The translations under genes were made by a program, and so were the position numbers. The notes beneath the pieces were generated by a model. The model did not search any database and was not told the DNA's origin. It was given only the letters and a program-made list of their open reading frames with translations. From Escherichia coli (GTDB lineage: Bacteria > Pseudomonadota > Gammaproteobacteria > Enterobacterales > Enterobacteriaceae): a DNA stretch of 64,000 bases. Shown here in pieces: positions 2,720 to 60,829 of the stretch (position 1 is its first letter; each line of letters begins with the position of its first letter). The stretch lies in assembly GCF_050320075.1 (NCBI RefSeq), contig NZ_CP190018.1; one strand, written 5' to 3'.

Positions 2720-5350
2720 ATGAGCAAGAGCACCGCTGAGATCCGTCAGGCGTTTCTCGACTTTTTCCATAGTAAGGGACATCAGGTAGTTGCCAGCAGC
2801 TCCCTGGTACCCCATAACGACCCAACTTTGTTGTTTACCAACGCCGGGATGAACCAGTTCAAGGATGTGTTCCTTGGGCTCGACAAGCGTAATTATTCCC
2901 GCGCTACCACTTCCCAACGCTGCGTGCGTGCGGGTGGTAAACACAACGACCTGGAAAACGTCGGTTACACCGCGCGTCATCATACCTTCTTCGAAATGCT
3001 GGGCAACTTCAGCTTCGGCGACTATTTCAAACACGATGCCATTCAGTTTGCATGGGAACTGCTGACCAGTGAAAAATGGTTTGCCCTGCCGAAAGAGCGT
3101 CTGTGGGTTACCGTCTATGAAAGCGACGACGAAGCCTACGAAATCTGGGAAAAAGAAGTAGGGATCCCGCGCGAACGTATTATTCGCATCGGCGATAACA
3201 AAGGTGCGCCATACGCATCTGACAACTTCTGGCAGATGGGTGACACTGGTCCGTGCGGCCCGTGCACCGAAATCTTCTACGATCACGGCGACCACATTTG
3301 GGGTGGCCCTCCGGGAAGTCCGGAAGAAGACGGCGATCGCTACATTGAGATCTGGAACATCGTCTTCATGCAGTTCAACCGCCAGGCAGATGGCACGATG
3401 GAACCGCTGCCGAAGCCGTCTGTAGATACCGGTATGGGTCTGGAGCGTATTGCTGCGGTGCTGCAACACGTTAACTCTAACTATGACATCGACCTGTTCC
3501 GCACGCTGATCCAGGCGGTAGCGAAAGTCACTGGCGCGACCGATCTGAGCAATAAATCGCTGCGCGTAATCGCTGACCACATTCGTTCTTGTGCGTTCCT
3601 GATCGCGGATGGCGTAATGCCGTCCAATGAAAACCGTGGTTATGTACTGCGTCGTATCATTCGTCGCGCAGTGCGTCACGGCAATATGCTGGGCGCGAAA
3701 GAAACCTTCTTCTACAAACTGGTTGGTCCGCTGATCGACGTAATGGGCTCTGCGGGTGAAGACCTGAAACGCCAGCAGGCGCAGGTTGAGCAGGTGCTGA
3801 AGACTGAAGAAGAGCAGTTTGCCCGTACTCTGGAGCGCGGTCTGGCGCTGCTGGATGAAGAGCTGGCAAAACTTTCTGGTGATACGCTGGATGGCGAAAC
3901 GGCTTTCCGTCTGTACGACACCTATGGCTTCCCGGTTGACCTGACGGCTGATGTTTGTCGTGAGCGCAACATCAAAGTTGACGAAGCTGGTTTCGAAGCA
4001 GCAATGGAAGAGCAGCGTCGTCGCGCGCGCGAAGCCAGCGGCTTTGGTGCCGATTACAACGCAATGATCCGTGTTGACAGCGCATCTGAATTTAAAGGCT
4101 ATGACCATCTGGAACTGAACGGCAAAGTGACCGCGCTGTTTGTTGATGGTAAAGCGGTTGATGCCATCAATGCAGGCCAGGAAGCTGTGGTCGTGCTGGA
4201 TCAAACGCCATTCTATGCGGAATCCGGCGGTCAGGTTGGTGATAAAGGCGAACTGAAAGGCGCTAACTTCTCCTTTGCGGTGGAAGATACGCAGAAATAC
4301 GGCCAGGCGATTGGTCACATCGGTAAACTTGCTGCGGGTTCTCTGAAAGTGGGCGACGCGGTGCAGGCTGATGTTGATGAGGCTCGTCGCGCCCGTATTC
4401 GTCTGAATCACTCCGCAACGCACCTGATGCACGCTGCGCTGCGCCAGGTTCTGGGTACTCATGTATCGCAGAAAGGTTCACTGGTTAACGACAAAGTGCT
4501 GCGCTTCGACTTCTCACACAACGAAGCGATGAAACCAGAAGAGATTCGTGCGGTCGAAGACCTGGTGAACGCACAGATTCGCCGTAACTTGCCGATCGAA
4601 ACCAACATCATGGATCTCGAAGCGGCGAAAGCGAAAGGTGCGATGGCGCTGTTCGGCGAGAAGTATGATGAGCGCGTACGCGTGCTGAGCATGGGCGATT
4701 TCTCCACCGAGCTGTGTGGCGGTACTCACGCCAGCCGCACTGGTGATATTGGTCTGTTCCGCATCATCTCTGAATCGGGTACTGCTGCAGGCGTTCGTCG
4801 TATCGAAGCGGTAACCGGAGAAGGCGCTATCGCCACCGTTCATGCAGACAGCGATCGCTTAAACGAAGTCGCGCATCTGCTGAAAGGCGATAGCAATAAT
4901 CTGGCTGATAAAGTGCGCTCAGTACTGGAACGTACGCGTCAGCTGGAAAAAGAGTTACAACAGCTTAAAGAACAAGCTGCCGCACAGGAGAGCGCAAATC
5001 TTTCCAGTAAGGCAATTGATGTTAATGGTGTTAAGCTGTTGGTTAGCGAGCTTAGCGGTGTTGAGCCGAAAATGTTGCGTACCATGGTTGACGATTTAAA
5101 AAATCAGCTGGGGTCGACAATTATCGTGCTGGCAACGGTAGCCGAAGGTAAGGTTTCTCTGATTGCAGGCGTATCTAAGGACGTCACAGATCGTGTGAAA
5201 GCAGGGGAACTGATTGGTATGGTCGCTCAGCAGGTGGGCGGCAAGGGTGGTGGACGTCCTGACATGGCGCAAGCCGGTGGTACGGATGCTGCGGCCTTAC
5301 CTGCAGCGTTAGCCAGTGTGAAAGGCTGGGTCAGCGCGAAATTGCAATAA
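2720..5350 (+). CDS. alaS: Alanine--tRNA ligase
   Basis: 876-aa [27 protein letters not shown].., class II aaRS; synteny. Confidence 0.98.
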
Positions 5351-8036: not shown

Positions 8037-9620
<1,584 letters not shown>

Positions 9621-9627
9621 CAGAAAA

Positions 9628-9700
9628 GAAAAAGGCCACTCGTGAGTGGCCAAAATTTCATCTCTGAATTCAGGGATGATGATAACAAATGCGCGTCTTT
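9628..9700 (-). ncRNA. micA: MicA (SraD) Hfq-dependent small RNA
   Basis: Minus strand reads GAAAGACGCGCATTTGTTATCATCATCCCTGAATTCAGAGATGAAATTTTGGCCACTCACGAGTGGCCTTTTT, ending in a terminator hairpin; sits between gshA and luxS. Confidence 0.85.
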
Positions 9701-9769
9701 CATATACTCAGACTCGCCTGGGAAGAAAGAGTTCAGAAAATTTTTAAAAAAATTACCGGAGGTGGCTAA

Positions 9770-10285
9770 ATGCCGTTGTTAGATAGCTTCACAGTCGATC
9801 ATACCCGGATGGAAGCGCCTGCAGTTCGGGTGGCGAAAACAATGAACACCCCGCATGGCGACGCAATCACCGTGTTCGATCTGCGCTTCTGCGTGCCGAA
9901 CAAAGAAGTGATGCCAGAAAGAGGGATCCATACCCTGGAGCACCTGTTTGCTGGTTTTATGCGTAACCATCTTAACGGTAATGGTGTAGAGATTATCGAT
10001 ATCTCGCCAATGGGCTGCCGCACCGGTTTTTATATGAGTCTGATTGGTACGCCAGATGAGCAGCGTGTTGCTGATGCCTGGAAAGCGGCAATGGAAGACG
10101 TGCTGAAAGTGCAGGATCAGAATCAGATCCCGGAACTGAACGTCTACCAGTGTGGCACTTACCAGATGCACTCGTTGCAGGAAGCGCAGGATATTGCGCG
10201 TAGCATTCTGGAACGTGACGTGCGCATCAACAGCAACGAAGAACTGGCGCTGCCGAAAGAGAAGTTGCAGGAACTGCACATCTAG
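9770..10285 (+). CDS. luxS: S-ribosylhomocysteine lyase (AI-2 synthase)
   Basis: 171-aa [26 protein letters not shown].. with HTLEH metal motif. Confidence 0.97.
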
Positions 10286-16646: not shown

Positions 16647-17639
16647 TTACTTCTGCGCTGCCAGCGCCTCATTCACCCAGCCATCGAACTGCTGCTGGTG
16701 GGCTTTGATCCAGCCATCAACGTGGCCCTGAATATCGCCTTCTGAGGCTTTGCCGTCATGCATAATGGCGTTCTGGGCGTTAATATCTGCCACTGGTAAC
16801 TGCATAATGGCAAACAGTTTCGCTGCTGCCGGGTTTTTCTCGGCCCAGGCTTTGTTGGCAACGATATGCATGGTACTGACCGGGAAGCCGTAATTCGCGC
16901 CATTCGGCAGTTTGGTATCGGCATTTTTATCGCCCGGCAGTGCGGAGAACGGCACCTGCAACCAGACCACATCTTTCCCCGGTTTCAGTTCGTTACTCAC
17001 CCAGTACGGCGTCCAGGTGTAGTAAAACACCGGCTTACCCTCTTTGTAACGACTGATGGTGTCAGCCATCATCGCTGCGTAGTTCCCCTGATTATGCGTC
17101 ACGGTATTGGTCAGTCCATACGCGGCAAGCTGGTGGTTGATCGCACCTTCGCAGCCCCAGCCAGGGTTACAGCCAGTCAAATCCGCTTTACCGTCGCCGT
17201 TGGTATCGAACAGTTTGGCGATCTTCGGATCTTTCAGTTGCGCGATGTTGGTGATTTTGTACTGGTCGGCAGTTTTCTTATCGATCAGGTAACCCTGTGC
17301 CGCGCCGTTAACAAATACTCCTTCACGATAAAATTTCTTATCGCCACCGGCAGCTTCGTACATGTTGTCATGCAGCGGCGTCCAGTTCACGGCGGTGAAG
17401 GTTGCATCGCCGGAAGCAAGCGAGGTGTAGCCAACGTTGTAATCCACTTCGCTGGGTTTATTGACGGTATAACCTAATTTCTCCAGTGCACGACTGACCA
17501 GCAGCGTCTGGAAGGTTTCTTCAGTGATGGTGCTCTGAACTGGATTAACAGTAATGCCTTTGCCCGGCAGATCGGCAGCAAAAGTTTGTGTAGAGATAAG
17601 CGTGGCAAACGCTGTCGCAAAAAGTACGCTATGTCGCAT
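16647..17639 (-). CDS. proX: Glycine betaine/proline ABC transporter periplasmic binding protein
   Basis: Internal start [21 protein letters not shown] (signal peptide) gives 330 aa; track ORF extends 14 codons upstream. Confidence 0.93.
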
Positions 17640-49090: not shown

Positions 49091-51424
49091 TCAGGCTGTT
49101 GCAGGGTCGTCACATTTTGGCAGCCAGTCGCCGTAGCTTTCCTCTTTCAGCGTCAGGTTGGTCTGTATCCCCTGTTTGGTATGGCGCTTCTCGTAATTCA
49201 GTCCGTATTCCTTCAGCATCACCGGCAGCCCCAGCCCGAACATTTTCAGACTGAGTACGTTCCGGTAGCCGTTTGCCTCCATGTAGGCCAGATAGGCGTG
49301 ATAGAGGTATTTACGGTAATTGCGCGGGATGATGCTGGCGTTCCCCATATACATGCCGCTGGTCTGCGGCAGGGTTTCCAGATAGCCGATAAAATCAAAC
49401 GTCGGGTCGGCATCCCGTTTGATGTTCAGCGCCTCGTCTGAGTTCTGCTGGGACTGAAGCAGTGACCGGGCGAGCATCGGGTCGCTGAACTTCTGCATCA
49501 GGTGACGCACGATGACCGCCAGCTCGCGGGTGATTTTGTCCTTAAGCTGCGGGTCGCGCTCCTGCGGGGCTATCTGTTCCGGGAAGTGAATAATCACCCG
49601 CCGGCGTGACACGCCGCCGCTGCGGTCGGTGAAGCGCATCGGGTTATTGTTCACGGCCAGAATTACCGCCGGGATATGCGTGGAGTATGCATCCCGGTAT
49701 TTCGGGTCAACGGACACCGCATCGCCGCCGGTGATGGCCTTGAGTCCGGCACCGTCGCCGCTCCATTTTTCCTGGTCCGGCAGGCGTATCAGTGAGAAGC
49801 CAGTTAACGCGGCACGTTCACGCGGGGATTCCAGCGTCTCGATGGTGGCCGACGTGGCGTTATCCTCACCGGCCAGCAGGGTGGCTATTTCGGCCATGAT
49901 ACTTTTGCCGCTGCCGCCGGGACCGGTCACCTCCAGAAAGAGCTGCCAGTCGTAGCGGTTTGCCAGCACCATAAACAGTGCGGCCAGAATCACGTCGCGT
50001 TTTTCCGCACGACCACCGGCGGCACGGTCAAGCCAGCGCCAGAACGCGGGGGCGTGGGTTTCCAGCGTTTCCCCTTCCACCGGCGGGGTGAAATCCACAT
50101 CGCACAGGGTGCGCATCCAGTGTGACGGACTGTGCGGGTGGAACGTGCCGCTCTGCGTGTCGAGCACGCCGTTACGAAAGCCAATCAGGCGGCGGGAGGG
50201 GGCTTCCTGCTGCGGAATAATCAGCTTCAGGGTGTCCACCACGGAGGCCACCTTCCCGGAGGAGAACGGCGCGCGCAGACGCTGAAACAGCCCGGCCACA
50301 TCCCGGGCAAAGTCCTGTGGTGGCAGCACCTTCCAGACACCATTTTCATAACGGGACAGAAGCTGGCCGTTGGCATCAACCGCGAGCGCCTCGCCGTAAT
50401 GCTCATAGATACGCATGGCCTTTTCGCTGGTACTCATGGCGGAAAACTCCGCTTCGCTCATGGTGTCGAACGGGCTTTCAGCCGGTGGCCGGATGGCATC
50501 ATAAATGGCCTTACGGGTGGCTTCCCCGCCGTACTGCGTGAAGGCATCATTCCAGTCACCGAAGACCGGCGGCAGGGCAACAACACCTTCACACGCATCT
50601 GCGGCTGCGGCGGCTTTTTTCTGGCCGTCACCGCTGAGGTCACGGTCAGCAGCAAGGACAATCTGACAGGCCGGATGCTTCTGCCGGGCAAGGCTGGCCA
50701 GAGAAAGGAGATTCACGGAAGAAAGCGCCACCATCACCGTTTCACCGGTCAGGTGATGCACGGTAAGTGCGGTCGCGTATCCCTCCGCTATCCACAGACG
50801 TTTTCCGGCCTGATTCTGTCCTTCAAGGGTGTGACAGGTGCCCCTGACCTGTCCGCCTTTCAGGGTGCGCTTACGGCCGTCAGCACTGATTAACTGAAGG
50901 TTAACCAGTTCGCCGCTGTCGTCATACAGTGGCACCACAAGGTCACCGGCGCGCCAGCTCACGCCACCGGCTCTGTGTGTGCCGGTCAGCATCCGGCATT
51001 CCCGGCCGGGAAAGCCCTTGCGGGTCAGGTAGGCGTTACCGGTTCCGGGACGGGTTTTCGCCATCAGGGTTTGTGCCAGTGCGGCGGCGTTCTTCCGGGC
51101 AGCGTCTGTTTCAGCACCGGCGGCGGTCGTCACTGCCGGGTCAGCCGGGGGCAGGCTGCCGGTCACGGCAGCCACCTTTGCGGCCGCGTCGGACGGGGAA
51201 ACACCAAACACCTTTTCAACCAGTTTCAGGCCGTCACCGGCACCACACTGATTGCAGTACCAGGTGCCGCGCCCCTCCCTGTCATCAAAACGGAAGCGGT
51301 CACTCCCGCCACAGACCGGACAGGGCTGATGACGGTTCTTCAGCACCTGAATCCCCAGCGCCGGGAGAATACGCGGCCAGTGGCCGAGCGCATGGCTGAC
51401 GGTGGCGGTTACGTTCATTTTCAT
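49091..51424 (-). CDS. P4 alpha-like primase/helicase (replication protein)
   Basis: 777-aa ORF; N-terminal zinc motif CPVCGG..YCNQCG, toprim-like region, central Walker A GPGGSGKS; strong SD AAGGAG upstream. Confidence 0.9.
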   Translation of the reverse strand: MKMNVTATVSHALGHWPRILPALGIQVLKNRHQPCPVCGGSDRFRFDDREGRGTWYCNQCGAGDGLKLVEKVFGVSPSDAAAKVAAVTGSLPPADPAVTTAAGAETDAARKNAAALAQTLMAKTRPGTGNAYLTRKGFPGRECRMLTGTHRAGGVSWRAGDLVVPLYDDSGELVNLQLISADGRKRTLKGGQVRGTCHTLEGQNQAGKRLWIAEGYATALTVHHLTGETVMVALSSVNLLSLASLARQKHPACQIVLAADRDLSGDGQKKAAAAADACEGVVALPPVFGDWNDAFTQYGGEATRKAIYDAIRPPAESPFDTMSEAEFSAMSTSEKAMRIYEHYGEALAVDANGQLLSRYENGVWKVLPPQDFARDVAGLFQRLRAPFSSGKVASVVDTLKLIIPQQEAPSRRLIGFRNGVLDTQSGTFHPHSPSHWMRTLCDVDFTPPVEGETLETHAPAFWRWLDRAAGGRAEKRDVILAALFMVLANRYDWQLFLEVTGPGGSGKSIMAEIATLLAGEDNATSATIETLESPRERAALTGFSLIRLPDQEKWSGDGAGLKAITGGDAVSVDPKYRDAYSTHIPAVILAVNNNPMRFTDRSGGVSRRRVIIHFPEQIAPQERDPQLKDKITRELAVIVRHLMQKFSDPMLARSLLQSQQNSDEALNIKRDADPTFDFIGYLETLPQTSGMYMGNASIIPRNYRKYLYHAYLAYMEANGYRNVLSLKMFGLGLPVMLKEYGLNYEKRHTKQGIQTNLTLKEESYGDWLPKCDDPATA

Positions 51425-51438
51425 GGTGTTGTTCTCCT

Positions 51439-51759
51439 TCAGTGCAGTACCGGCGCTTTTATGTGACGGGCACAGAGTTCATCCATCACAACCAGCCCGA
51501 GAAAGGACAGCGACGGCGCGGCCTTCAGGGGGCCGGATTCCATTAAATCTTCCAGCAGGGCACAGGCTATCTGACGCCCTTTTTCCTCACCGTGCTGGCG
51601 CAGATAAAAGCCTTCCAGCTCAGCGGCGATGGCCGCCTCCAGTGATTCAAGGGTGAGATGCGGGTAGCGGTGCTGACGTTCGCACACGGTCAGCCAGGCA
51701 CAGGCGACAGCGCGACGGTAAAGGGCAGCGCGTAAGACGGGCGGTAAGGGTGTTTTCAT
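51439..51759 (-). CDS. 106-aa protein upstream of alpha (P4 orf106/Cnr-like by position and size)
   Basis: ORF with GGAGG SD 7 nt upstream; ends 14 bp before the alpha start; functional name is from recalled P4 gene order only. Confidence 0.6.
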
Positions 51760-51894
51760 TTGCTTTCCTCCCTGTGACAGATGACTGCATTCCGTGCCGG
51801 TTGCATTAACTGATAAGGCATATCTGCGTCTCCTGAAGACGTGCGTATCCCTGCGCGAATACGCACATTTAATTTTTCGGGTGTCGTTTTTTAA

Positions 51895-52350
51895 TTACAG
51901 ATAATTGCGGTAACTGTTATCCGGGGTGATTTCCGGGTCAGACTCCGTGCGGGGAATTTCCCGCCATTCCCGCGCCACCGGTGCCGCCCGGCTGACCGGA
52001 ACAGGGGCCTGCGGGTAAATATCCAGATATTTCTCCCGCCATTTCTGTAATTCCGGGTCTCCGGCCATTTCTTTCAGTACCGCATGCCGGTTTACGGGGC
52101 TGCGTTTAAACAGGTCAGGACGGTCACAGGTAAATTCCCGCAGAAAACGCCCCAGCGGGATGTCTGTGGTGCGTCCGTCAGCGAGGATACGCACAAGGAT
52201 ACTGAATTTACGGCGGTACGGGTTCCAGACAATGTCCGGGCAGCGGTACGGCATTTCCCACGGAATACCGTCTTCCAGAATGCCGACCACGGCCACATCG
52301 GGAAAACCGGCAGAACGGTAAATCTCACCGGGCTGGGGAAAATCAAACAT
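51895..52350 (-). CDS. 151-aa hypothetical protein (P4 orf151-like)
   Basis: Start ATG overlaps the stop of the upstream gene (ATGTTTGA); same operon. Confidence 0.6.
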   Translation of the reverse strand: MFDFPQPGEIYRSAGFPDVAVVGILEDGIPWEMPYRCPDIVWNPYRRKFSILVRILADGRTTDIPLGRFLREFTCDRPDLFKRSPVNRHAVLKEMAGDPELQKWREKYLDIYPQAPVPVSRAAPVAREWREIPRTESDPEITPDNSYRNYL

Positions 52351-52630
52351 GCGTCCTGTCTCCCCGGTCTTTCTGCTGGGCGAGAAAATCGCGGCACAGG
52401 CCTTTGGCTTTCAGCTCATTCAGCACAAAATCAATATCTTCATTCAGGTAGCTGAAAATATGCGGAATGTAGAGCTGATGCAGGCCGGAGAGTTCACGGT
52501 GAATCAAATCACCCCCAACAAACTGGGATACGGCGCTGGCGCGGTTGAGCTTATGGTAAGCCTCAATGCTGAGGTGTTCACGGGCGTCATGACGCGCTGA
52601 GACGGTCTGAGGGGCTTTTTTATTACGCAC
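52343..52630 (-). CDS. 95-aa hypothetical protein, GTG start (possibly P4 epsilon-like)
   Basis: Track ORF 52343..52915 has an implausible N-terminus overlapping the upstream gene; GTG at 52630 is preceded by GGAGG at 6-nt spacing, giving [28 protein letters not shown].. Confidence 0.5.
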
Positions 52631-53222
52631 GGGACACCTCCACCACCGGCAGACGGGCAGCAAGGGAGAGCACATAGTCACGGACAAGGGAACGGCGGGC
52701 ACTGCGTTCATCACCGGCGACGGTGCGAAGCATACAGATACGGGGATGACGGTCTGCGCGACGGACAGCCGCAAACACAAAGACAAATTCAGGGTGTGAG
52801 GGGGTAAGGGTTGTAGCCATGATGGCAGCCTCCTGTGAATAGCAAATAACGCTATCGCCGGAGTTCTCACGCTCGATGGCGATAGCCCAGACGGGGGTGA
52901 GAATACCGGCTTCACAGGATACCGGCCAGCCCGGAGGCTGCCCCGCCTGAGCTACCATTGACTCTGCGGCATAATGAGCGGACGCGGGCAGGATGCACGG
53001 AATGCCATCTGCACGACTGACCACACACCACACCATAATCTGGCGCTCTGTGGCATTGATTGCGACACAAAAAAAGACGCGTGGCGCGTCATATGTCGCC
53101 TGTGAATTGCTCGGGTTCTCACGCCCGGCTGCCGATTTTGCGGCAGCGGAAAAACTATATCCGCAAATGCCGGAAAAAGGCAAGCCAGAAAAAGGGACTT
53201 TTTGCAGAGCGGGCATCATCAT
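52623..53222 (-). CDS. 199-aa hypothetical protein (P4 orf199-like)
   Basis: ATGATGATG at 53222-53214 overlaps the vis stop (ATGA coupling); track ORF 52623..53267 extends into vis in another frame. Confidence 0.5.
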
Positions 53223-53485
53223 GCGTCGTACCCCCGTTTGCGTCCGGCAATGCGCCCGGCCATCCATGCGGTGACTTCAGAGTGCAGCCAGGCCACATTT
53301 TTACCGCCAAGACTCACCTGCGGCGGAAATTCCCCTTTACGGATGAGTTCATAGATGGTCGAGCGTGACAGGCCGCACAGGTGCATCACTTCCGGCAGAC
53401 GTAAAAAACGCTCCTGCGTGATGTCCGGCAGCGGCATCAGTGGCGTCACAGGGGCGGGAGACGGGGAAGAAAAAACAGCTTGCAT
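53219..53485 (-). CDS. AlpA/Vis-family phage regulator (excisionase-like HTH), 88 aa
   Basis: ..[44 protein letters not shown].. AlpA-type HTH; first gene of the leftward operon. Confidence 0.8.
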
Positions 53486-53587
53486 CGGGCTACCTCGTTA
53501 ATGTCCATACAGCACCGGATAAGTCCGTCCGGCTTCGGGTAGCGCTTTATTTTGTGAATATTTTCAGCAGACGCAACAGGGGGGATT

Positions 53588-53605
53588 TGTTCCGGCAGTC
53601 TTACA
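53588..53605 (-). promoter_or_regulatory. TGT-N12-ACA dyad (Ogr/Delta activator-type box) upstream of the vis-alpha operon
   Basis: TGTTCCGGCAGTCTTACA about 100 bp upstream of the vis start; dyad geometry as in P2/P4 late promoters. Confidence 0.45.
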
Positions 53606-53764
53606 ATGGCTGTGTATTTTTTGTTCATCTCCACTTAAAGTCATTTAAAGCCACTTAAAGCAATTCGTAATTTTTATAGTGAAATACAAATCGTTTTTTC
53701 TTATTCATTCCCGGCGAATTAATAAAAACAAACAGTAATAAACAGCACAAAAAGCCCATCAACG

Positions 53765-53869
53765 GGTGAACAGTGGTGAACAGACGGTGAACAGTCATTA
53801 CTGCGATTGTTCACCCTTTAACTTACTGTATTACTTATCTTTTTTATTAAGGTGAACAGAGGTGAACAG
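53765..53869. repeat. Iteron cluster (GGTGAACAG x5 direct, 1 inverted), ori-like
   Basis: GGTGAACAG at 53765, 53775, 53786, 53851, 53861; inverted TGTTCACC at 53808-53815; same 8-mer as the cluster at 48948-49040. Confidence 0.8.
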
Positions 53870-53948
53870 TAAAATATAAAAAAAACAAACAGTAAGCCGG
53901 TTTTTCCTGCGACCTTTTCCTGGCTTGCCGGTCTGAGGATGAGTCTCC

Positions 53949-53966
53949 TGTGTCAGGGCTGGCACA
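53949..53966 (+). promoter_or_regulatory. TGT-N12-ACA dyad (Delta/Ogr box) of the sid promoter
   Basis: TGTGTCAGGGCTGGCACA centred ~80 bp upstream of the sid ATG. Confidence 0.45.
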
Positions 53967-54038
53967 TCTGCAATGCGTCGTGTTGTTGTCCGGTGTACGT
54001 CACAATTTTCTTAACCTGAAGTGACGAGGAGCCGGAAA

Positions 54039-54773
54039 ATGTCTGACAACACCATCCCTGAATATCTGCAACCCGCGCTGGCACAACTGGAAAAGGCCAG
54101 AGCCGCCCATCTTGAGAACGCCCGCCTGATGGATGAGACCGTCACGGCCATTGAACGGGCAGAACAGGAAAAAAATGCGCTGGCGCAGGCCGACGGAAAC
54201 GACGCTGACGACTGGCGCACGGCCTTTCGTGCAGCCGGTGGTGTCCTGAGCGACGAGCTGAAACAGCGCCACATTGAGCGCGTGGCACGCCGGGAGCTGG
54301 TACAGGAATATGACAATCTGGCCGTGGTGCTGAATTTTGAACGTGAACGCCTGAAAGGGGCGTGTGACAGCACGGCCACCGCCTACCGGAAGGCACATCA
54401 TCACCTGCTGAGTCTGTATGCAGAGCATGAGCTGGAACACGCCCTGAATGAAACCTGTGAGGCGCTTGTCCGGGCAATGCATCTGAGCATCCAGGTACAG
54501 GAAAATCCGCTCGCCAACACCACCGGCCATCAGGGCTACGTCGCGCCGGAAAAGGCTGTCATGCAGCAGGTGAAATCATCGCTGGAGCAGAAAATTAAAC
54601 AGATGCAAATCAGCCTCACCGGCGAGCCGGTTCTCCGGCTGACCGGACTGTCAGCGGCAACACTCCCGCACATGGATTATGAGGTGGCAGGCACACCGGC
54701 ACAGCGCAAGGTGTGGCAGGACAAAATAGACCAGCAGGGAGCAGAGCTTAAGGCCAGAGGACTGCTGTCATGA
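54039..54773 (+). CDS. sid: P4 Sid-like capsid size-determination (external scaffold) protein, 244 aa
   Basis: Start MSDNTIPEYLQPALAQLEK.. inside track ORF 54021..54773; coiled-coil-rich; stop overlaps the delta start (ATGA). Confidence 0.8.
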   Translation: MSDNTIPEYLQPALAQLEKARAAHLENARLMDETVTAIERAEQEKNALAQADGNDADDWRTAFRAAGGVLSDELKQRHIERVARRELVQEYDNLAVVLNFERERLKGACDSTATAYRKAHHHLLSLYAEHELEHALNETCEALVRAMHLSIQVQENPLANTTGHQGYVAPEKAVMQQVKSSLEQKIKQMQISLTGEPVLRLTGLSAATLPHMDYEVAGTPAQRKVWQDKIDQQGAELKARGLLS

Positions 54774-55270
54774 TTTACTGCCCGTCGTGTGGACATGTTG
54801 CTCACACCCGTCGCGCACATTTCATGGACGATGGCACCAAGATAATGATTGCACAGTGCCGGAATATTTATTGCTCTGCGACATTTGAAGCGAGTGAAAG
54901 CTTTTTCTCTGACAGTAAAGATTCAGGAATGGAATACATTTCAGGCAAACAGAGATACCGCGATTCACTGACGTCGGCCTCCGGCAGTATGAAACGCCCG
55001 AAAAGAATGCTTGTTACCGGATATTGTTGTCGGAGATGTAAAGGCCTTGCGCTGTCAAGAACATCGCGGCGTCTGTCTCAGGAAGTCACCGAGCGTTTTT
55101 ATGTGTGCACGGATCCGGGCTGTGGTCTGGTGTTTAAAACGCTTCAGACCATCACCCGCTTCATTGTCCGCCCGGTCACGCCGGACGAACTGGCAGAAAA
55201 CCTGCATGAAAAACAGGAACTGCCGCCAGTACGGTTAAAAACACAATCATATTCGCTGCGTCTGGAATGA
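54770..55270 (+). CDS. P4 Delta-like late-gene activator (tandem Ogr-type zinc fingers), 166 aa
   Basis: Two Cys4 motifs (CPSCGH..CRNIYC and CCRRCKG..CTDPGCG). Confidence 0.85.
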   Translation: MIYCPSCGHVAHTRRAHFMDDGTKIMIAQCRNIYCSATFEASESFFSDSKDSGMEYISGKQRYRDSLTSASGSMKRPKRMLVTGYCCRRCKGLALSRTSRRLSQEVTERFYVCTDPGCGLVFKTLQTITRFIVRPVTPDELAENLHEKQELPPVRLKTQSYSLRLE

Positions 55271-55343
55271 GGGCTGCCGGTTAACACCGGCCGTCGCCAC
55301 ACACCGTATTTTTATTCTTCAGCATGATGAGAAAGAGATAACG

Positions 55344-55916
55344 ATGGAAAGCACAGCCTTACAGCAGGCCTTTGACACCTGTCAGAATAACAAAGCAGCA
55401 TGGCTGCAACGCAAAAATGAGCTGACTGCGGCCGAACAGGAATATCTGCGGCTTCTGTCAGGAGAAGGCAGAAACGTCAGTCACCTGGACGAATTACGCA
55501 ATATTATCGAAGTCAGAAAATGGCAGGTGAATCAGGCCGCCGGTCGTTATATTCGTTCGCATGAAGCCGTTCAGCACATCAGCATCCGCGACCGGCTGAA
55601 TGATTTTATGCAGCAGCACGGCACAGTACTGGCGGCCGCACTGGCACCGGAGCTGATGGGCTACAGTGAGCTGACGGCCATTGCCCGAAACTGTGCCATA
55701 CAGCGTGCCACAGATGCCCTGCGTGAAGCCCTTCTGTCCTGGCTTGCGAAGGGTGAAAAAATTAATTATTCCGTACAGGATAGCGACATTTTAACGACCA
55801 TCGGATTCAGGCCTGACGCGGCTTCGGTGGATGACAGCCGTGAAAAATTCACCCCTGCGCAGAACATGATTTTTTCGCGCAAAAGTGCGCAACTGGCATC
55901 ACATCAGTCTGTGTAA
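55344..55916 (+). CDS. psu: P4 Psu-like polarity suppression / capsid decoration protein, 190 aa
   Basis: 190-aa ORF following sid and delta; lengths 244/166/190 match my recollection of P4. Confidence 0.8.
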   Translation: MESTALQQAFDTCQNNKAAWLQRKNELTAAEQEYLRLLSGEGRNVSHLDELRNIIEVRKWQVNQAAGRYIRSHEAVQHISIRDRLNDFMQQHGTVLAAALAPELMGYSELTAIARNCAIQRATDALREALLSWLAKGEKINYSVQDSDILTTIGFRPDAASVDDSREKFTPAQNMIFSRKSAQLASHQSV

Positions 55917-55950
55917 AACTCCCCGAAAATCCGCCCGTTTTTACTGAAAA

Positions 55951-55983
55951 AAGCCATGCATCGATAAGGTGCATGGCTTTGCA
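55951..55983 (+). terminator. Intrinsic terminator after psu
   Basis: Hairpin GCCATGCATCGATAAGGTGCATGGC followed by TTT. Confidence 0.6.
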
Positions 55984-56080
55984 TGCGTTTTCCTGCCTCA
56001 TTTTCTGCAAACCGTGCCATTCCCGGCGCGGTCTGAGCGTGTCAGTACAACTGCATTAAAACCGCCCCGCAAAGCGGGCG

Positions 56081-56349: not shown

Positions 56350-59076
56350 TTAGTTGATTAGGTGTGACTCAGTTGCAGAGTGACCTTTTTTTGTCCTAAC
56401 AAACTTGATAGCAAGTGTTTTTCCTCTAATGTAATTAGACCAGTTATATTTTTCTTCACCAAGGCAACTGTCCCTATGAATTAATATTTCTTTTCCATCA
56501 GAATCTCTGGCAAAAACAAATCCTTTTCCTAATGTAAGATCTGAATATATTTCTGCTATAGAATATCCATTATTTTTCCATGTGATTTGTTCGAATTCGG
56601 CAATTGTTTTAGATGAGCTAAAAGCACTCCATTTGGGGGAGGTGAATGGGTTGTTTGGTATTTTTGTTGCTCTCATTGTTGAAATGATATTAACTACTTC
56701 TTTACTTGATATCTTAAAATCTTTAGAGAACTTTGTAATGTCGGCAAGATTGCTTTCAGCAAAATCAATTACTTTTATAATGAATTGTTGAGATAGTTTA
56801 TCAATGTTGTTTTTGATCGTGTCACAAAAAAGATTTAAAGATTTAATAGCTTCGTCAGAAAGTCGATCGCTGATGTTTTCTTTTTCAAATATAAATTCCA
56901 ATATGTCGATAACTTCAGATATGTTTTTTTCTACAGACTCAGGGTTAATGTCGAAGTTATTTTCACAAGAACGCTTTAATGCGGCGACTCTAAAGTAAGC
57001 TTGCTCTTGAGGTGAATGTGAATCTTTCCATTTTTCAGTGTATTCAAGAATGTCTGGGTATTCTTTACCATAAAGATGAACACCTAAATACTCTCGCATT
57101 ATTATAGAAGACAGTACTTCGCCTGAATGCTCAACTCTGTCGAATCCAGAATCAATCAATTCCTGAGATACTTTTTGAGCCTCTATAAAATCACCAATAT
57201 CTTTATAGATATACATCAGAGTTAAGTTGTTTAGTGGATTTTCAGACTCTATGCCTATTGCTGACTTTATACAAGAAATAGCACCTAAATTATCACCCTG
57301 CTTATGTAGTATTCTGGCATATGTTCGCATAAATAGAGGATTTTTTTGATATATTTGAGCGAGTGTTTTAAAATCCTCATAAATAACATTTAATTTATCT
57401 TTGTTAACGCTTTTGTAGCCTAAAATTTTATTTGCTCTGTTAACAGCTATTTGCAAGGAGTCAGGGCTATTATTAGGGATGAATCGATAATCAAACCGAT
57501 CTATTTCTTTATCTTGTTGGAATTTTTGTAAGTGCAATATTTCAGTTCGTTGTTTTCTTGCTTTTTCAGCAATAATGTTTCTGACGGTGTTATTTCTTGG
57601 TGATGTGATTAATAGTTCTTTGATTGATTCACTTAAAGAAAACTCTTCTTCTCCCGTATTAGATGTTTTCCGGGATACTAAAGATGTGTTCAATATTTCT
57701 TTAATCGCTTTTGCTATTGAGTCGGGATCTGAATCTAAGAAATGAGTTAAAAATGATCTTGATGATGCTCCGGTGACAAACAAGCATTCAAGAATAGATA
57801 TTGCATCGTTACTTAAAACATCTAATAGATTATTAAATGAAAATGCAGCGATATCTTTTTTGGATTTTTCTATTGAGTCAGGTAAAGCCATTCCATTATA
57901 AATGGAATCTATTGTAAGCCTTATTGCTAAGGGGTTAAAATGAGTCACTTCAGTAATTCTCGTGAGTTCTTCTGGGGTTAAGTTTATTATCCCTCGTTTA
58001 TCTGAATATGATTTGGCTAGATGGAAAGCCACACCAGATTGCAATTCCTTAAGTGAAATTGGGTAAGCTCCGTCAACCATTATTCGACTAGTGACTACCA
58101 CTTTAAAATTCGAAGGAAGAGTATACTGGAAACGAATGAACTCATCAGGACCATCTCTTAATAAAGTTTCGAGATTATCGATACATAGGAGAGTGCTTTC
58201 TATATCTTGGTCGTTTATAATTTCTGAATATAGATCATCATAGTTTTCTATCTCTTCATCAGGATTAAAAAACTCCACTATTTCTTTTTTTATTTCAGAA
58301 ATGGTGTCAATGTTTTTTAACTCAGAAATACCATCAGCAGTGAGATGATGTTTCTTTAATGTTAAATAGCAAATGTTTTTGAATTTCTCATTGGCTTTTG
58401 GTGAGATGCTCAATTCTTTTAAGAAATCTAAAATTAAAGCGGTTTTTCCTACGCCTCCAGGAGCTACAACCGCAATGAATGGAGTTCGATCGTTATTTAT
58501 TGCTGATAATAACTCTTTCTTTTCACCTTTACGGCCTATAAGGCTGGTAATGTCGTGATCAAATTTATCAGGCAGGTTGTTATTAATTTCCCAGCTAATA
58601 GTAGAAAACCATTCTTCTGGAGGTGCTTTTAATTGACCAGTAGATGCGGAATAATAAGCATCCTTCACACTTTTTAAACCAAGTACTTCTATATATGGAT
58701 GTGAGGCTATAGCTGCAGCGCAATGCCAGTAATGCTCATGGAATGGTCGGGTTGGATGACTAATTTGATTTCTTATAAAAAATAAATCAACAGCTGTACA
58801 GAACTCTTTCAGTTCTGACAGTTTATCATAGTCAGATGTACCCTTAGCTAATTGCAGGGCATAATTGAAAATTTCACCGATATAACTTGCTTGGATAAGA
58901 GTTTGCGTATTGAAAACGGGACCTCTCCCACGCTCCAGTTCTAGTTTAGAACGAGGTTCGAAATGTTCGCTTAACCTACTTTTACCTCCTGCATCCTCAC
59001 TAACAACATACGCCGCCAATGCTTTTTCTAAGGCATAAACTATCATACTAGTTTTCGTATCAAGATATTCAGACAT
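56350..59076 (-). CDS. STAND (NB-ARC-type) NTPase with N-terminal effector-like domain, helical repeat region and C-terminal beta domain; candidate antiphage defence protein
   Basis: 908-aa AT-rich ORF with SD AAGGA; LIGRKGEKKEL..IAVVAPGGVGKTALIL (Walker A), LLCIDNLE (Walker B), KVVVTSR (RNBS-B-like), HFNPLAIRL (GLPL-like); N-terminal IRNQISH (Rx4H); C-terminal GKGFVFARDSDGKEILIH. Confidence 0.8.
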   Translation of the reverse strand: MSEYLDTKTSMIVYALEKALAAYVVSEDAGGKSRLSEHFEPRSKLELERGRGPVFNTQTLIQASYIGEIFNYALQLAKGTSDYDKLSELKEFCTAVDLFFIRNQISHPTRPFHEHYWHCAAAIASHPYIEVLGLKSVKDAYYSASTGQLKAPPEEWFSTISWEINNNLPDKFDHDITSLIGRKGEKKELLSAINNDRTPFIAVVAPGGVGKTALILDFLKELSISPKANEKFKNICYLTLKKHHLTADGISELKNIDTISEIKKEIVEFFNPDEEIENYDDLYSEIINDQDIESTLLCIDNLETLLRDGPDEFIRFQYTLPSNFKVVVTSRIMVDGAYPISLKELQSGVAFHLAKSYSDKRGIINLTPEELTRITEVTHFNPLAIRLTIDSIYNGMALPDSIEKSKKDIAAFSFNNLLDVLSNDAISILECLFVTGASSRSFLTHFLDSDPDSIAKAIKEILNTSLVSRKTSNTGEEEFSLSESIKELLITSPRNNTVRNIIAEKARKQRTEILHLQKFQQDKEIDRFDYRFIPNNSPDSLQIAVNRANKILGYKSVNKDKLNVIYEDFKTLAQIYQKNPLFMRTYARILHKQGDNLGAISCIKSAIGIESENPLNNLTLMYIYKDIGDFIEAQKVSQELIDSGFDRVEHSGEVLSSIIMREYLGVHLYGKEYPDILEYTEKWKDSHSPQEQAYFRVAALKRSCENNFDINPESVEKNISEVIDILEFIFEKENISDRLSDEAIKSLNLFCDTIKNNIDKLSQQFIIKVIDFAESNLADITKFSKDFKISSKEVVNIISTMRATKIPNNPFTSPKWSAFSSSKTIAEFEQITWKNNGYSIAEIYSDLTLGKGFVFARDSDGKEILIHRDSCLGEEKYNWSNYIRGKTLAIKFVRTKKGHSATESHLIN

Positions 59077-59094: not shown

Positions 59095-60282
59095 TTAAAG
59101 AGTGGTTTGCAATCCCCACCAATTCATTAACTCTATACGTTGTTCTAAATAGGTACTTCTATTGTAAGCTTTTCGAACCTCATTCCTCTCGGAATGCGCC
59201 AATGCTGCTTCAATAACATCAGGATTAAATTCTGCTTCGTTCATTGCCGTACTGGCAATTGATCTTAGTCCATGGGCCACTAACTTACCGCCATAACCTA
59301 TTCTCTTCAAGGCAGCGTTTGCCGTCTGACTGTTCATCGGCTGTTTTGGATCGTTTCTGCTCGGGAAAATATGTTCACGGTGACCACTGATAGGCTTCAT
59401 TACTTCCAAAATACCTAAAGCCTGAGGTGACAAAGGGACAATGTGTTCACGTTTAGCCTTCATTCGTTCGGCGGGAATCGTCCAGAGTTTGGCCTCGAGA
59501 TCGATCTCGACCCACCGAGCACCAGAAGCCTCAGAAGGGCGCACTAGGGTCAGGAGCTGCCACTCGATAAGACAGCGAGTCGGAACAGACAGATTCGACA
59601 TTACCAGAGAACGCATCAGCTTAGGTAATTCTTCGGGTCGTAGCGTGGGCATATTCTGCTTTTTGGGTTTCTCAAATGCCATTCCAACACCTGATGCTGG
59701 ATTTGCATCAATTAGACCAGTGTTTACGGCATAAATCATTATCTCGTTAATGCGCTGTACCAGACGACGTACCGTCTCTAGCGCGCCACGTGCTTTGATT
59801 GGTTCGAGGGTTTCAACAAGTGTTCGGGCTTTGATTTGCTGAACAGGGAGCTCACCGATGGCAGGTAATACATCTTTTTCCAGGGAACGCCAAATGTCTT
59901 TCGCGTAATCAGGGGTAACGCTTTTGCTTTTTATCTGGAACCAGTTGGTCGCAACAGTCGAAAAAATACTGTCTAGAGCTATCTGTTGTTGTTCTTCGAT
60001 AAATTCAGCTTGAACTTGTGGGTCTATACCATTAGCCAACAAAGCAAGGTAATCCGCTCTTAACCGTCGAGCATCAGCAAGTGAAAGGGCGGGGAAAGCA
60101 CCAAGCCCCATCATTGTCCGCTGTTTTGTTGCTGGACGTTGATAACGGAAACGCCACAACTTCTTACCGTTCGTTTTAACGAGCAGAAAAAGGCCATCGC
60201 CATCATGTAACGTTAGATCCTTTTCTAACGCTTTAGCGCGCAGAACTTCGGTGTTGGTCAGGGGGCGTGTTGTTCTTGCCAC
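59095..60282 (-). CDS. P4-family tyrosine integrase
   Basis: 395-aa ORF, GTG start with AAGGAG SD; N-terminal arm-binding-like LTNTEVLRAKALEKDLTLHDGDGLFLLVKTNGKKLWRFRY; C-terminal HGLRS..R..Y catalytic region; adjacent to the ssrA 3' end. Confidence 0.9.
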   Translation of the reverse strand: MARTTRPLTNTEVLRAKALEKDLTLHDGDGLFLLVKTNGKKLWRFRYQRPATKQRTMMGLGAFPALSLADARRLRADYLALLANGIDPQVQAEFIEEQQQIALDSIFSTVATNWFQIKSKSVTPDYAKDIWRSLEKDVLPAIGELPVQQIKARTLVETLEPIKARGALETVRRLVQRINEIMIYAVNTGLIDANPASGVGMAFEKPKKQNMPTLRPEELPKLMRSLVMSNLSVPTRCLIEWQLLTLVRPSEASGARWVEIDLEAKLWTIPAERMKAKREHIVPLSPQALGILEVMKPISGHREHIFPSRNDPKQPMNSQTANAALKRIGYGGKLVAHGLRSIASTAMNEAEFNPDVIEAALAHSERNEVRKAYNRSTYLEQRIELMNWWGLQTTL

Positions 60283-60466: not shown

Positions 60467-60829
60467 TGGTGGAGCTGGCGGGAGTTGAACCCGCGTCCGA
60501 AATTCCTACGTCCTCGGTACTACATGCTTAGTCAGTCTTTACATTCGCTTGCCAGCTGCGGACGGACACGCCACTAACAAACTAGCCTGATTAAGTTTTA
60601 ACGCTTCAACCCCAGGCAGGGCTTCCACGCGATCTCTTTTGGGTTTGACCTCTCTTGATCCCCGTCCTAAGAGCGGAGGCTAGGGAGAGAGGGCTCTAAG
60701 CAGGTTATTAAGCTGCTAAAGCGTAGTTTTCGTCGTTTGCGACTATTTTTTGCGGCTTTTTACGAGGCCAACCGCCCCTCGGCATGCACCTTGGGTTTCG
60801 CAAATCCCGTCGAATCCAGAATCAGCCCC
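60467..60829 (-). ncRNA. ssrA: tmRNA (SsrA), 363 nt
   Basis: Minus strand reads GGGGCTGATTCTGGATTCGACGGGATTTGCGAAACCC..; tag ORF GCAAACGACGAAAACTACGCTTTAGCAGCTTAA (ANDENYALAA*); 3' end ..GCCAGCTCCACCA. Confidence 0.97.

Follow-up and report, generated by a model that had tools for sequence, protein, structure and literature searches.

In a 64-kb stretch of Escherichia coli DNA (64,000 nucleotides, hereafter the window), the spacer between the divergent genes vis and sid holds two 18-bp palindromes of the form TGT-N12-ACA, one on either side of a set of replication-origin iterons. A preliminary description of this DNA had read them as belonging to "PLL-like and Psid-like" promoters, through which the Ogr protein of a helper phage or the Delta protein of the satellite would switch on both flanking operons. 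The question that this locus raises is whether the dyads are indeed activator sites of two divergent promoters, or whether they are operators for the local regulator Vis, parts of the replication origin or chance occurrences of a short motif. We addressed it by comparing the region to the satellite P4, to the late promoters of phage P2 and to related satellites. The coordinates of the features discussed are collected in Table 1.

Table 1. Genes, RNAs and predicted regulatory sites in and around the vis-sid control region, in window coordinates
Feature	Position	Strand	Basis or remark
C4 antisense RNA (P4 CI immunity RNA)	52875-52962	-	Rfam, above gathering score
isrK	53070-53147	-	Rfam, above gathering score
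c4-a1b1 target elements	53108-53160	-	Rfam, above gathering score
vis (P4 orf88), AlpA-type excisionase/regulator, 88 aa, first gene downstream of PLL	53219-53485	-	ORF
Predicted PLL -10 hexamer CAAAAT	53549-53554	-	Read from sequence; inferred start ~53542
PLL activator dyad TGTTCCGGCAGTCTTACA (putative site)	53588-53605		P4 9133-9150
Three direct repeats TTAAAGTCA, TTAAAGCCA, TTAAAGCAA, P2 Cox-box-like	53635-53663	+	10-bp spacing
P4 ori type-1 iterons, five GGTGAACA and one inverted TGTTCACC	53765-53868		Exact search
Psid activator dyad TGTGTCAGGGCTGGCACA (putative site)	53949-53966		P4 9493-9510
Second Psid dyad TGTCCGGTGTACGTCACA	53987-54004		P4 9531-9548; overlaps predicted Psid -10
Predicted Psid -10 hexamer CACAAT	54001-54006	+	Read from sequence; inferred start ~54013
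sid, capsid size-determination scaffold, 244 aa	54039-54773	+	Top database cluster 98% identical; P4 sid in DNA match
delta, late-gene activator, two Ogr-like zinc-finger domains	54770-55270	+	PF04606 x2
psu, polarity suppression and capsid decoration	55344-55916	+	PHROG 6366, E 6e-99; P4 psu in DNA match

Orthology to the P4 control region

When the locus was compared to the P4 record X51522, window positions 53200-54100 aligned to P4 8745-9644 at 98.3% identity over 901 bp. The control region proper (53480-54045, 566 bp) is 98.8% identical to P4; the differences amount to six substitutions and an additional A within a poly-A stretch. Between 53880 and the sid ATG, a segment that includes the Psid dyad, the two sequences agree base for base. 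Two of the six substitutions fall within the PLL dyad (TGTTCAGGCTGTCTTACA in P4), both of them in the 12-bp spacer, which carries CCGGCAG in the window and CAGGCTG in P4, and the TGT and ACA arms are unchanged. The CCGGCAG form is the commoner one, being found in 8/10 of the other E. coli relatives sampled. On a larger scale, positions 48925-56080 match P4 4291-11624, from crr through cos, with 98.4% identity, and the window and P4 share the order vis, PLL, Cox boxes, ori iterons, Psid and sid-delta-psu.

On the left side lie vis, the immunity RNAs, orf151, orf106 and alpha, and on the right side sid, delta and psu. The vis product is 98.9% identical to P4 ORF88 and matches the PHROG family "excisionase and transcriptional regulator" (E 2e-17), and the immunity region downstream of vis appears intact in its sequence. 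The six iterons, which start at 53765, 53775, 53786, 53808, 53851 and 53861, match the "ori type 1 repeat" of X51522 at 9310-9413. Identity, flanking genes and iterons all agree with orthology to P4 8745-9644, and the terms "PLL-like and Psid-like" are borne out by this comparison, the region being the PLL-ori-Psid control region of P4. Neither of the two P4 GenBank records annotates PLL or Psid, and the exact bases of the two dyads are, from their geometry, the probable counterparts of the mapped P4 PLL and Psid sites. An early P4 record marks a "consensus -10" inside the right dyad.

The satellite as a whole is located at the 3' end of ssrA (tmRNA 60467-60829). P4 itself integrates at leuX, and the element in the window differs from P4 in its ssrA site as well as in its integrase and its cargo gene; the integrase (59095-60282) and the cargo region have no match to P4. 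The other end of the satellite is probably marked, at 48613-48786, by a short match to a "tmRNA pseudogene / attP" feature, and the ypjA autotransporter gene is found immediately beyond the satellite end. The same order (ypjA, satellite genes, ssrA, smpB) was observed at the E. coli YZLc1-3 locus, whose control region is 100% identical over the 566 bp. The crr region (48925-49090) carries one 120-bp repeat, whereas P4 carries two (4291-4410 and 4471-4590), and is ~180 bp shorter. Between cos/psu and int, a position described as the P4 defence hotspot (PMC9122126), the minus strand encodes a 908-aa ORF (56350-59076). It shows weak P-loop/STAND signals (Pfam AAA_16, E 4e-4; nSTAND1, E 1.2e-3), its sole PADLOC match is marginal (PDC-S27, E 2.6e-4) and PGAP names it "ATP-binding protein"; it is a candidate for an uncharacterised single-gene defence system.

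Occurrence of the dyads in the window

Both 18-mers, TGTTCCGGCAGTCTTACA and TGTGTCAGGGCTGGCACA, were read exactly where the preliminary description had placed them and were also recovered by pattern search, and the six exact type-1 iterons do lie between them. The PLL dyad precedes the vis ATG, on the minus strand, by 111.5 nt, and the Psid dyad precedes the sid ATG, on the plus strand, by 81.5 nt. The earlier statement that each dyad "faces" its operon is thus correct as to the upstream position but not as to orientation, since a palindrome has no facing direction.

The motif TGT-N12-ACA fixes six bases only, and it is not enriched across the 64-kb window, where 14 matches were found against 14.0 +/- 3.4 in dinucleotide shuffles. 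Because of this window-wide null result, we place the case for the dyads on their local clustering, their geometry and their conservation. Indeed, a third perfect dyad, TGTCCGGTGTACGTCACA, which was absent from the preliminary description, was found at 53987-54004, and the 553-bp vis-sid spacer (between the start codons) holds three perfect dyads, for which the Poisson probability P(>=3) is 2.7e-4 to 3.7e-4. When the 553-bp spacer was subjected to mononucleotide shuffling, at least three dyads were obtained in 71/100000 cases. One further exact dyad, TGTCGTTTTTTAATTACA, was observed at 51882-51899, at the orf151 stop and upstream of orf106 and alpha; P4 does not carry it, and it is probably a chance occurrence.

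Promoter geometry and comparison with P2 late promoters

Past the left dyad, the minus strand reads ...CTGTTGCGTCTGCTGAAAATATTCACAAAATAAAGCGCT..., in which the best -10-like hexamer is CAAAAT, read from 53554 to 53549. The start predicted 7 nt past this hexamer would be 54.5 nt from the dyad centre, and the vis ATG would follow after a 57-nt leader. Past the right dyad, the plus strand reads ...GTCACAATTTTCTTAACC..., containing CACAAT, and the predicted start would be 55.5 nt from the dyad centre, with a 26-nt leader to the sid ATG. Both window starts were derived from the -10-like hexamers. A sigma-70 scan found no -35/-10 pair on either strand of 53400-54100, which is consistent with activator-dependent promoters; the -35 of PLL is at best TTGCGT, 16 nt upstream of the -10, and Psid has none.

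The second Psid dyad is centred at about -17.5, 38 bp downstream of the Psid dyad. Its ACA lies within the -10 hexamer and its TGT within the conserved GTTGTTGT block, and divergent satellites (see below) carry CAGAAT in the Psid -10 column and TGT-N12-AGA at the position of the second dyad; conservation of two other elements could thus account in part for the perfect match. Julien and Calendar are said to have footprinted, in 1995, a second Delta site there in Psid. A second dyad was also sought at PLL by analogy with Psid, and the best match, TGT-N12-AAA centred at about -28, was unconvincing and was rejected.

TGT-N12-ACA, with partial dyad symmetry, is the consensus of Ogr-dependent P2 late promoters (PMC3931495). 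The preliminary description had called this dyad established, which holds for the consensus but not for a strict rule, as the annotated P2 sites deviate from it. We took P2 (NC_001895, sites at 3057-3087, 10239-10266 and 17555-17583) as a positive control. Its RefSeq activator sites TGTGTCAGTGATAAGCCA (PO/PP) and TGTGCTGTCGATTAGCCA (PF) read TGT-N12-CCA and that of PV reads TGT-N11-ACA; no exact TGT-N12-ACA is present at the P2 late promoters, and all five matches in the genome lie elsewhere. It is clear that TGT-N12-ACA is a consensus rather than a signature, and that the P4 sites are its best matches.

For the PO/PP site of P2, which has its centre at 3071.5, the distance to the annotated start is 55.5 nt on either side (PO, 3127; PP, 3016), and the PF site lies 56.5-58.5 nt from its annotated start. 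As predicted for the promoters of the window, the P2 late promoters (PP, PO, PV and PF) have an activator site ~55 nt from the start; both sets have a poor or absent -35, and the left arm TGTG(T/C) is common to the P2 sites and the window dyads. The layout differs, in that a single P2 site is shared by two divergent promoters at a distance of 111 bp, whereas in the window PLL and Psid would each have a site of their own, with ~471 bp and the origin between the predicted starts.

As to the activators, Dale in 1986, Deho in 1988 and Julien and Calendar in 1995 reportedly demonstrated activation by Ogr and Delta in vivo, together with an activator footprint, in P4 itself. The delta ORF of the window is intact and encodes two PF04606 (Ogr_Delta) domains, each with E 1.2e-10 (residues 4-45 and 87-132). 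Each half of Delta can be aligned with P2 Ogr (48% and 35% identity, respectively), which has no other match in the window, and no helper ogr or cox gene was found in the 64 kb. Delta is thus the sole local activator, and any helper that the strain may have is encoded outside the window. P4 is trans-activated by Ogr, and Delta, which is homologous to Ogr, acts on the late genes of both P2 and P4 (PMC7552001, PMC8628076).

Conservation of the sites in related satellites

The P4-type region is present in 1068/5426 complete E. coli genomes (~20%). In an alignment of 11 P4-lineage sequences, the window and 10 others sampled from these 1068 genomes, the PLL arms are invariant and 3/12 spacer columns vary; variation in the Psid dyad is limited to one base at its centre, and the second Psid dyad is invariant in 11/11. 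A distant search of the phage collection for other satellite control regions, such as that of phiR73, returned P4 records only.

We then turned to 13 divergent loci (L004-L016) from Cedecea, Citrobacter, Enterobacter, Raoultella and Superficieibacter, with Sid proteins 57-66% identical. As in the window, vis and sid are divergent and their spacer measures ~540-560 bp (539 to 559 bp). A perfect TGT-N12-ACA lies 81.5-82.5 nt upstream of the sid ATG in 13/13. It takes the form TGTGCCA-N4-TGCCACA, more symmetric than the Psid dyad of the window, with invariant arms and a centre that reads TTTT, GAAC, GCAC, TGTT, TTCT or TGCC; invariant arms around a variable centre are the signature of a protein-binding palindrome.

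At PLL, the left half-site TGTGTG is conserved across satellite loci. Of the 11 divergent loci in which vis is included, 9 have the ACA half at N11 or N13 and 2 have a degenerate one, and the exact N12 PLL dyad is, among the loci compared, confined to the P4 lineage. With the N11/N13 spacing, and with two loci that have no PLL dyad, the N12 rule is loose for PLL. The PLL -10 block TTCACAAAATA is invariant, save one base in L009, across 14 loci that include 11 divergent satellites. The repeat array upstream of PLL differs between the divergent satellites and the window.

In L004-L016, both halves of P4 Delta align to one stretch of ~140-210 bp right after sid. This suggests, from sequence comparison, that the divergent satellites encode a single Ogr-like domain, as opposed to the fused double domain of P4 and the window. 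These satellites are without the exact N12 PLL dyad and without the perfect match at the second Psid dyad. The geometry of the sites may have evolved together with the architecture of the activator, the N12 PLL dyad and the second Psid dyad being found only with the double-Ogr Delta.

The predicted vis leader (53486-53542, minus strand; GCTACCCGAAGCCGGACGGAC...CTGTATGGAC...GAGGTAGCCCGATG) is nearly invariant, even in L004-L016. As a 5' leader RNA it folds no better than shuffled sequences (z = -0.04), and one possibility is that the constraint reflects a protein operator, for instance for Vis.

Putative Cox boxes upstream of PLL

On the side of the PLL dyad away from vis, and 30 bp beyond it, lie three repeats, not mentioned in the preliminary description, that X51522 labels "ori type 2 repeats". 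They start at 53635, 53645 and 53655, show 0, 0 and 1 mismatch, respectively, to the Cox-box consensus TTAAA(G/C)NC(A/C) and are identical to P4; a search upstream of PLL found these three boxes and no further copies at <=1 mismatch. Cox boxes are described as occurring upstream of the promoter in at least six copies with 10-11 bp spacing, and for P2 Cox both binding upstream of PLL in P4 and activation of this promoter have been reported (PMC3936717). The boxes and the reported activation together suggest that PLL has a helper input independent of Ogr and Delta.

The Cox-box block (53625-53675, ~45 bp) is replaced by unrelated sequence in 6/10 of the other aligned P4-lineage sequences (L021-L026). 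The replacement blocks carry 10-bp direct repeats of their own, CTGGAAGG-like, and the replacement leaves the flanks, the arms of the PLL dyad and the Vis protein as they are. Among complete E. coli genomes, the P4-type block was counted in 440 and the L022-type block in 373. Vis is one and the same accession, WP_001149160.1, across both block types, which argues that the block answers to a helper factor and not to Vis. A bolder proposal is that the upstream part of PLL is a modular "helper-sensing" cassette, with Delta and the dyads co-evolving in parallel; we consider this rather unlikely. If it were true, satellites might swap the element that decides which helper's Cox/Apl-type protein wakes them.

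Alternative explanations for the dyads

That the dyads serve as operators for Vis, instead of Delta or Ogr, strikes us as highly improbable. Vis is encoded immediately downstream of PLL and regulates both promoters in P4: Polo et al., in 1996, are said to have found that it represses PLL and enhances Psid. On that account, the earlier statement that the activators would "switch on both operons" is a simplification. However, the P2 late promoters, which are independent of Vis, carry the same element at -55.5, and regulators of the AlpA/excisionase types typically bind direct repeats one helical turn apart, not an 18-bp palindrome. Such direct-repeat binding with a spacing of one helical turn is described for Cox (PMC3936717) and for Apl (PMC7498355). 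Vis sites may overlap the dyads.

The dyads might instead belong to the replication origin and serve, for instance, as auxiliary sites for the alpha primase-helicase. Indeed, X51522 annotates 9086-9809, a segment that covers all three dyads, as "origin of DNA replication", and the PLL dyad starts with TGTTC, like the iteron TGTTCACC. The exact iteron search, however, returned six copies at 53765-53868 and none at the dyads, and the Psid dyad tracks the sid ATG, not the iterons, while the spacer ranges from 539 to 559 bp. In the divergent satellites the PLL dyad is not iteron-like, although iterons (GTGAACAG) remain, and sites of this kind are also present at P2 late promoters, where there is no origin close by. 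An origin function thus has, in our estimate, a very slight probability.

Chance occurrence of a six-base motif without function would fit the number of matches in the window, which equals expectation, and the location of the other matches inside unrelated genes, but is scarcely credible in view of three dyads within 553 bp (P about 3-7e-4), arms that do not change where the spacers do, within the P4 lineage as well as among the satellites of 57-66% Sid identity, and fixed distances to the -10 and the ATG, equal to the distance at the annotated P2 activator site.

Discussion

We conclude that the dyads are very probably the upstream activator sites of PLL and Psid, in the divergent late-control region of a P4 satellite prophage integrated at ssrA. 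This interpretation is supported by orthology to a characterised system, by geometry and by phylogenetic footprinting. The sequences of the sites, their identity to P4, their geometry and their conservation were observed directly. The region combines the dyad consensus and a poor -35 with late or hijacking genes and a C4 zinc-finger activator.

In the mechanism that we propose, PLL would read leftward through vis and the immunity region and on to alpha, and Psid would read rightward into sid-delta-psu. A zinc-finger activator, either the Ogr of a P2-type helper or the Delta of the satellite, would bind each palindrome ~55 bp upstream of the start and, once bound, would recruit RNA polymerase to a promoter with a usable -10 and a weak (PLL) or absent (Psid) -35. 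Such activation by Ogr or Delta is to be expected from homology to P4 and P2, in which it has been shown experimentally. The Cox protein of a helper, binding three or more Cox boxes upstream of the dyad, would provide PLL with a second, independent input, and Psid would carry a second dyad over its -10, with the ori iterons placed between both promoters.

The finding of PLL and Psid is already known and belongs to textbook P4 biology. What is mildly new is comparative only, namely the deep conservation of the Psid dyad, the looser PLL dyad and the polymorphic Cox-box block. PGAP annotates none of these regulatory sites in the E. coli genomes that carry the region, and the coordinates given here for the window can be transferred to those genomes; beyond annotation, the significance is small. 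For this chromosome, the late-control region is intact, with PLL and its putative Cox boxes, ori, Psid, delta and the CI immunity RNA all in place, and the element should thus still respond to a P2-type helper.
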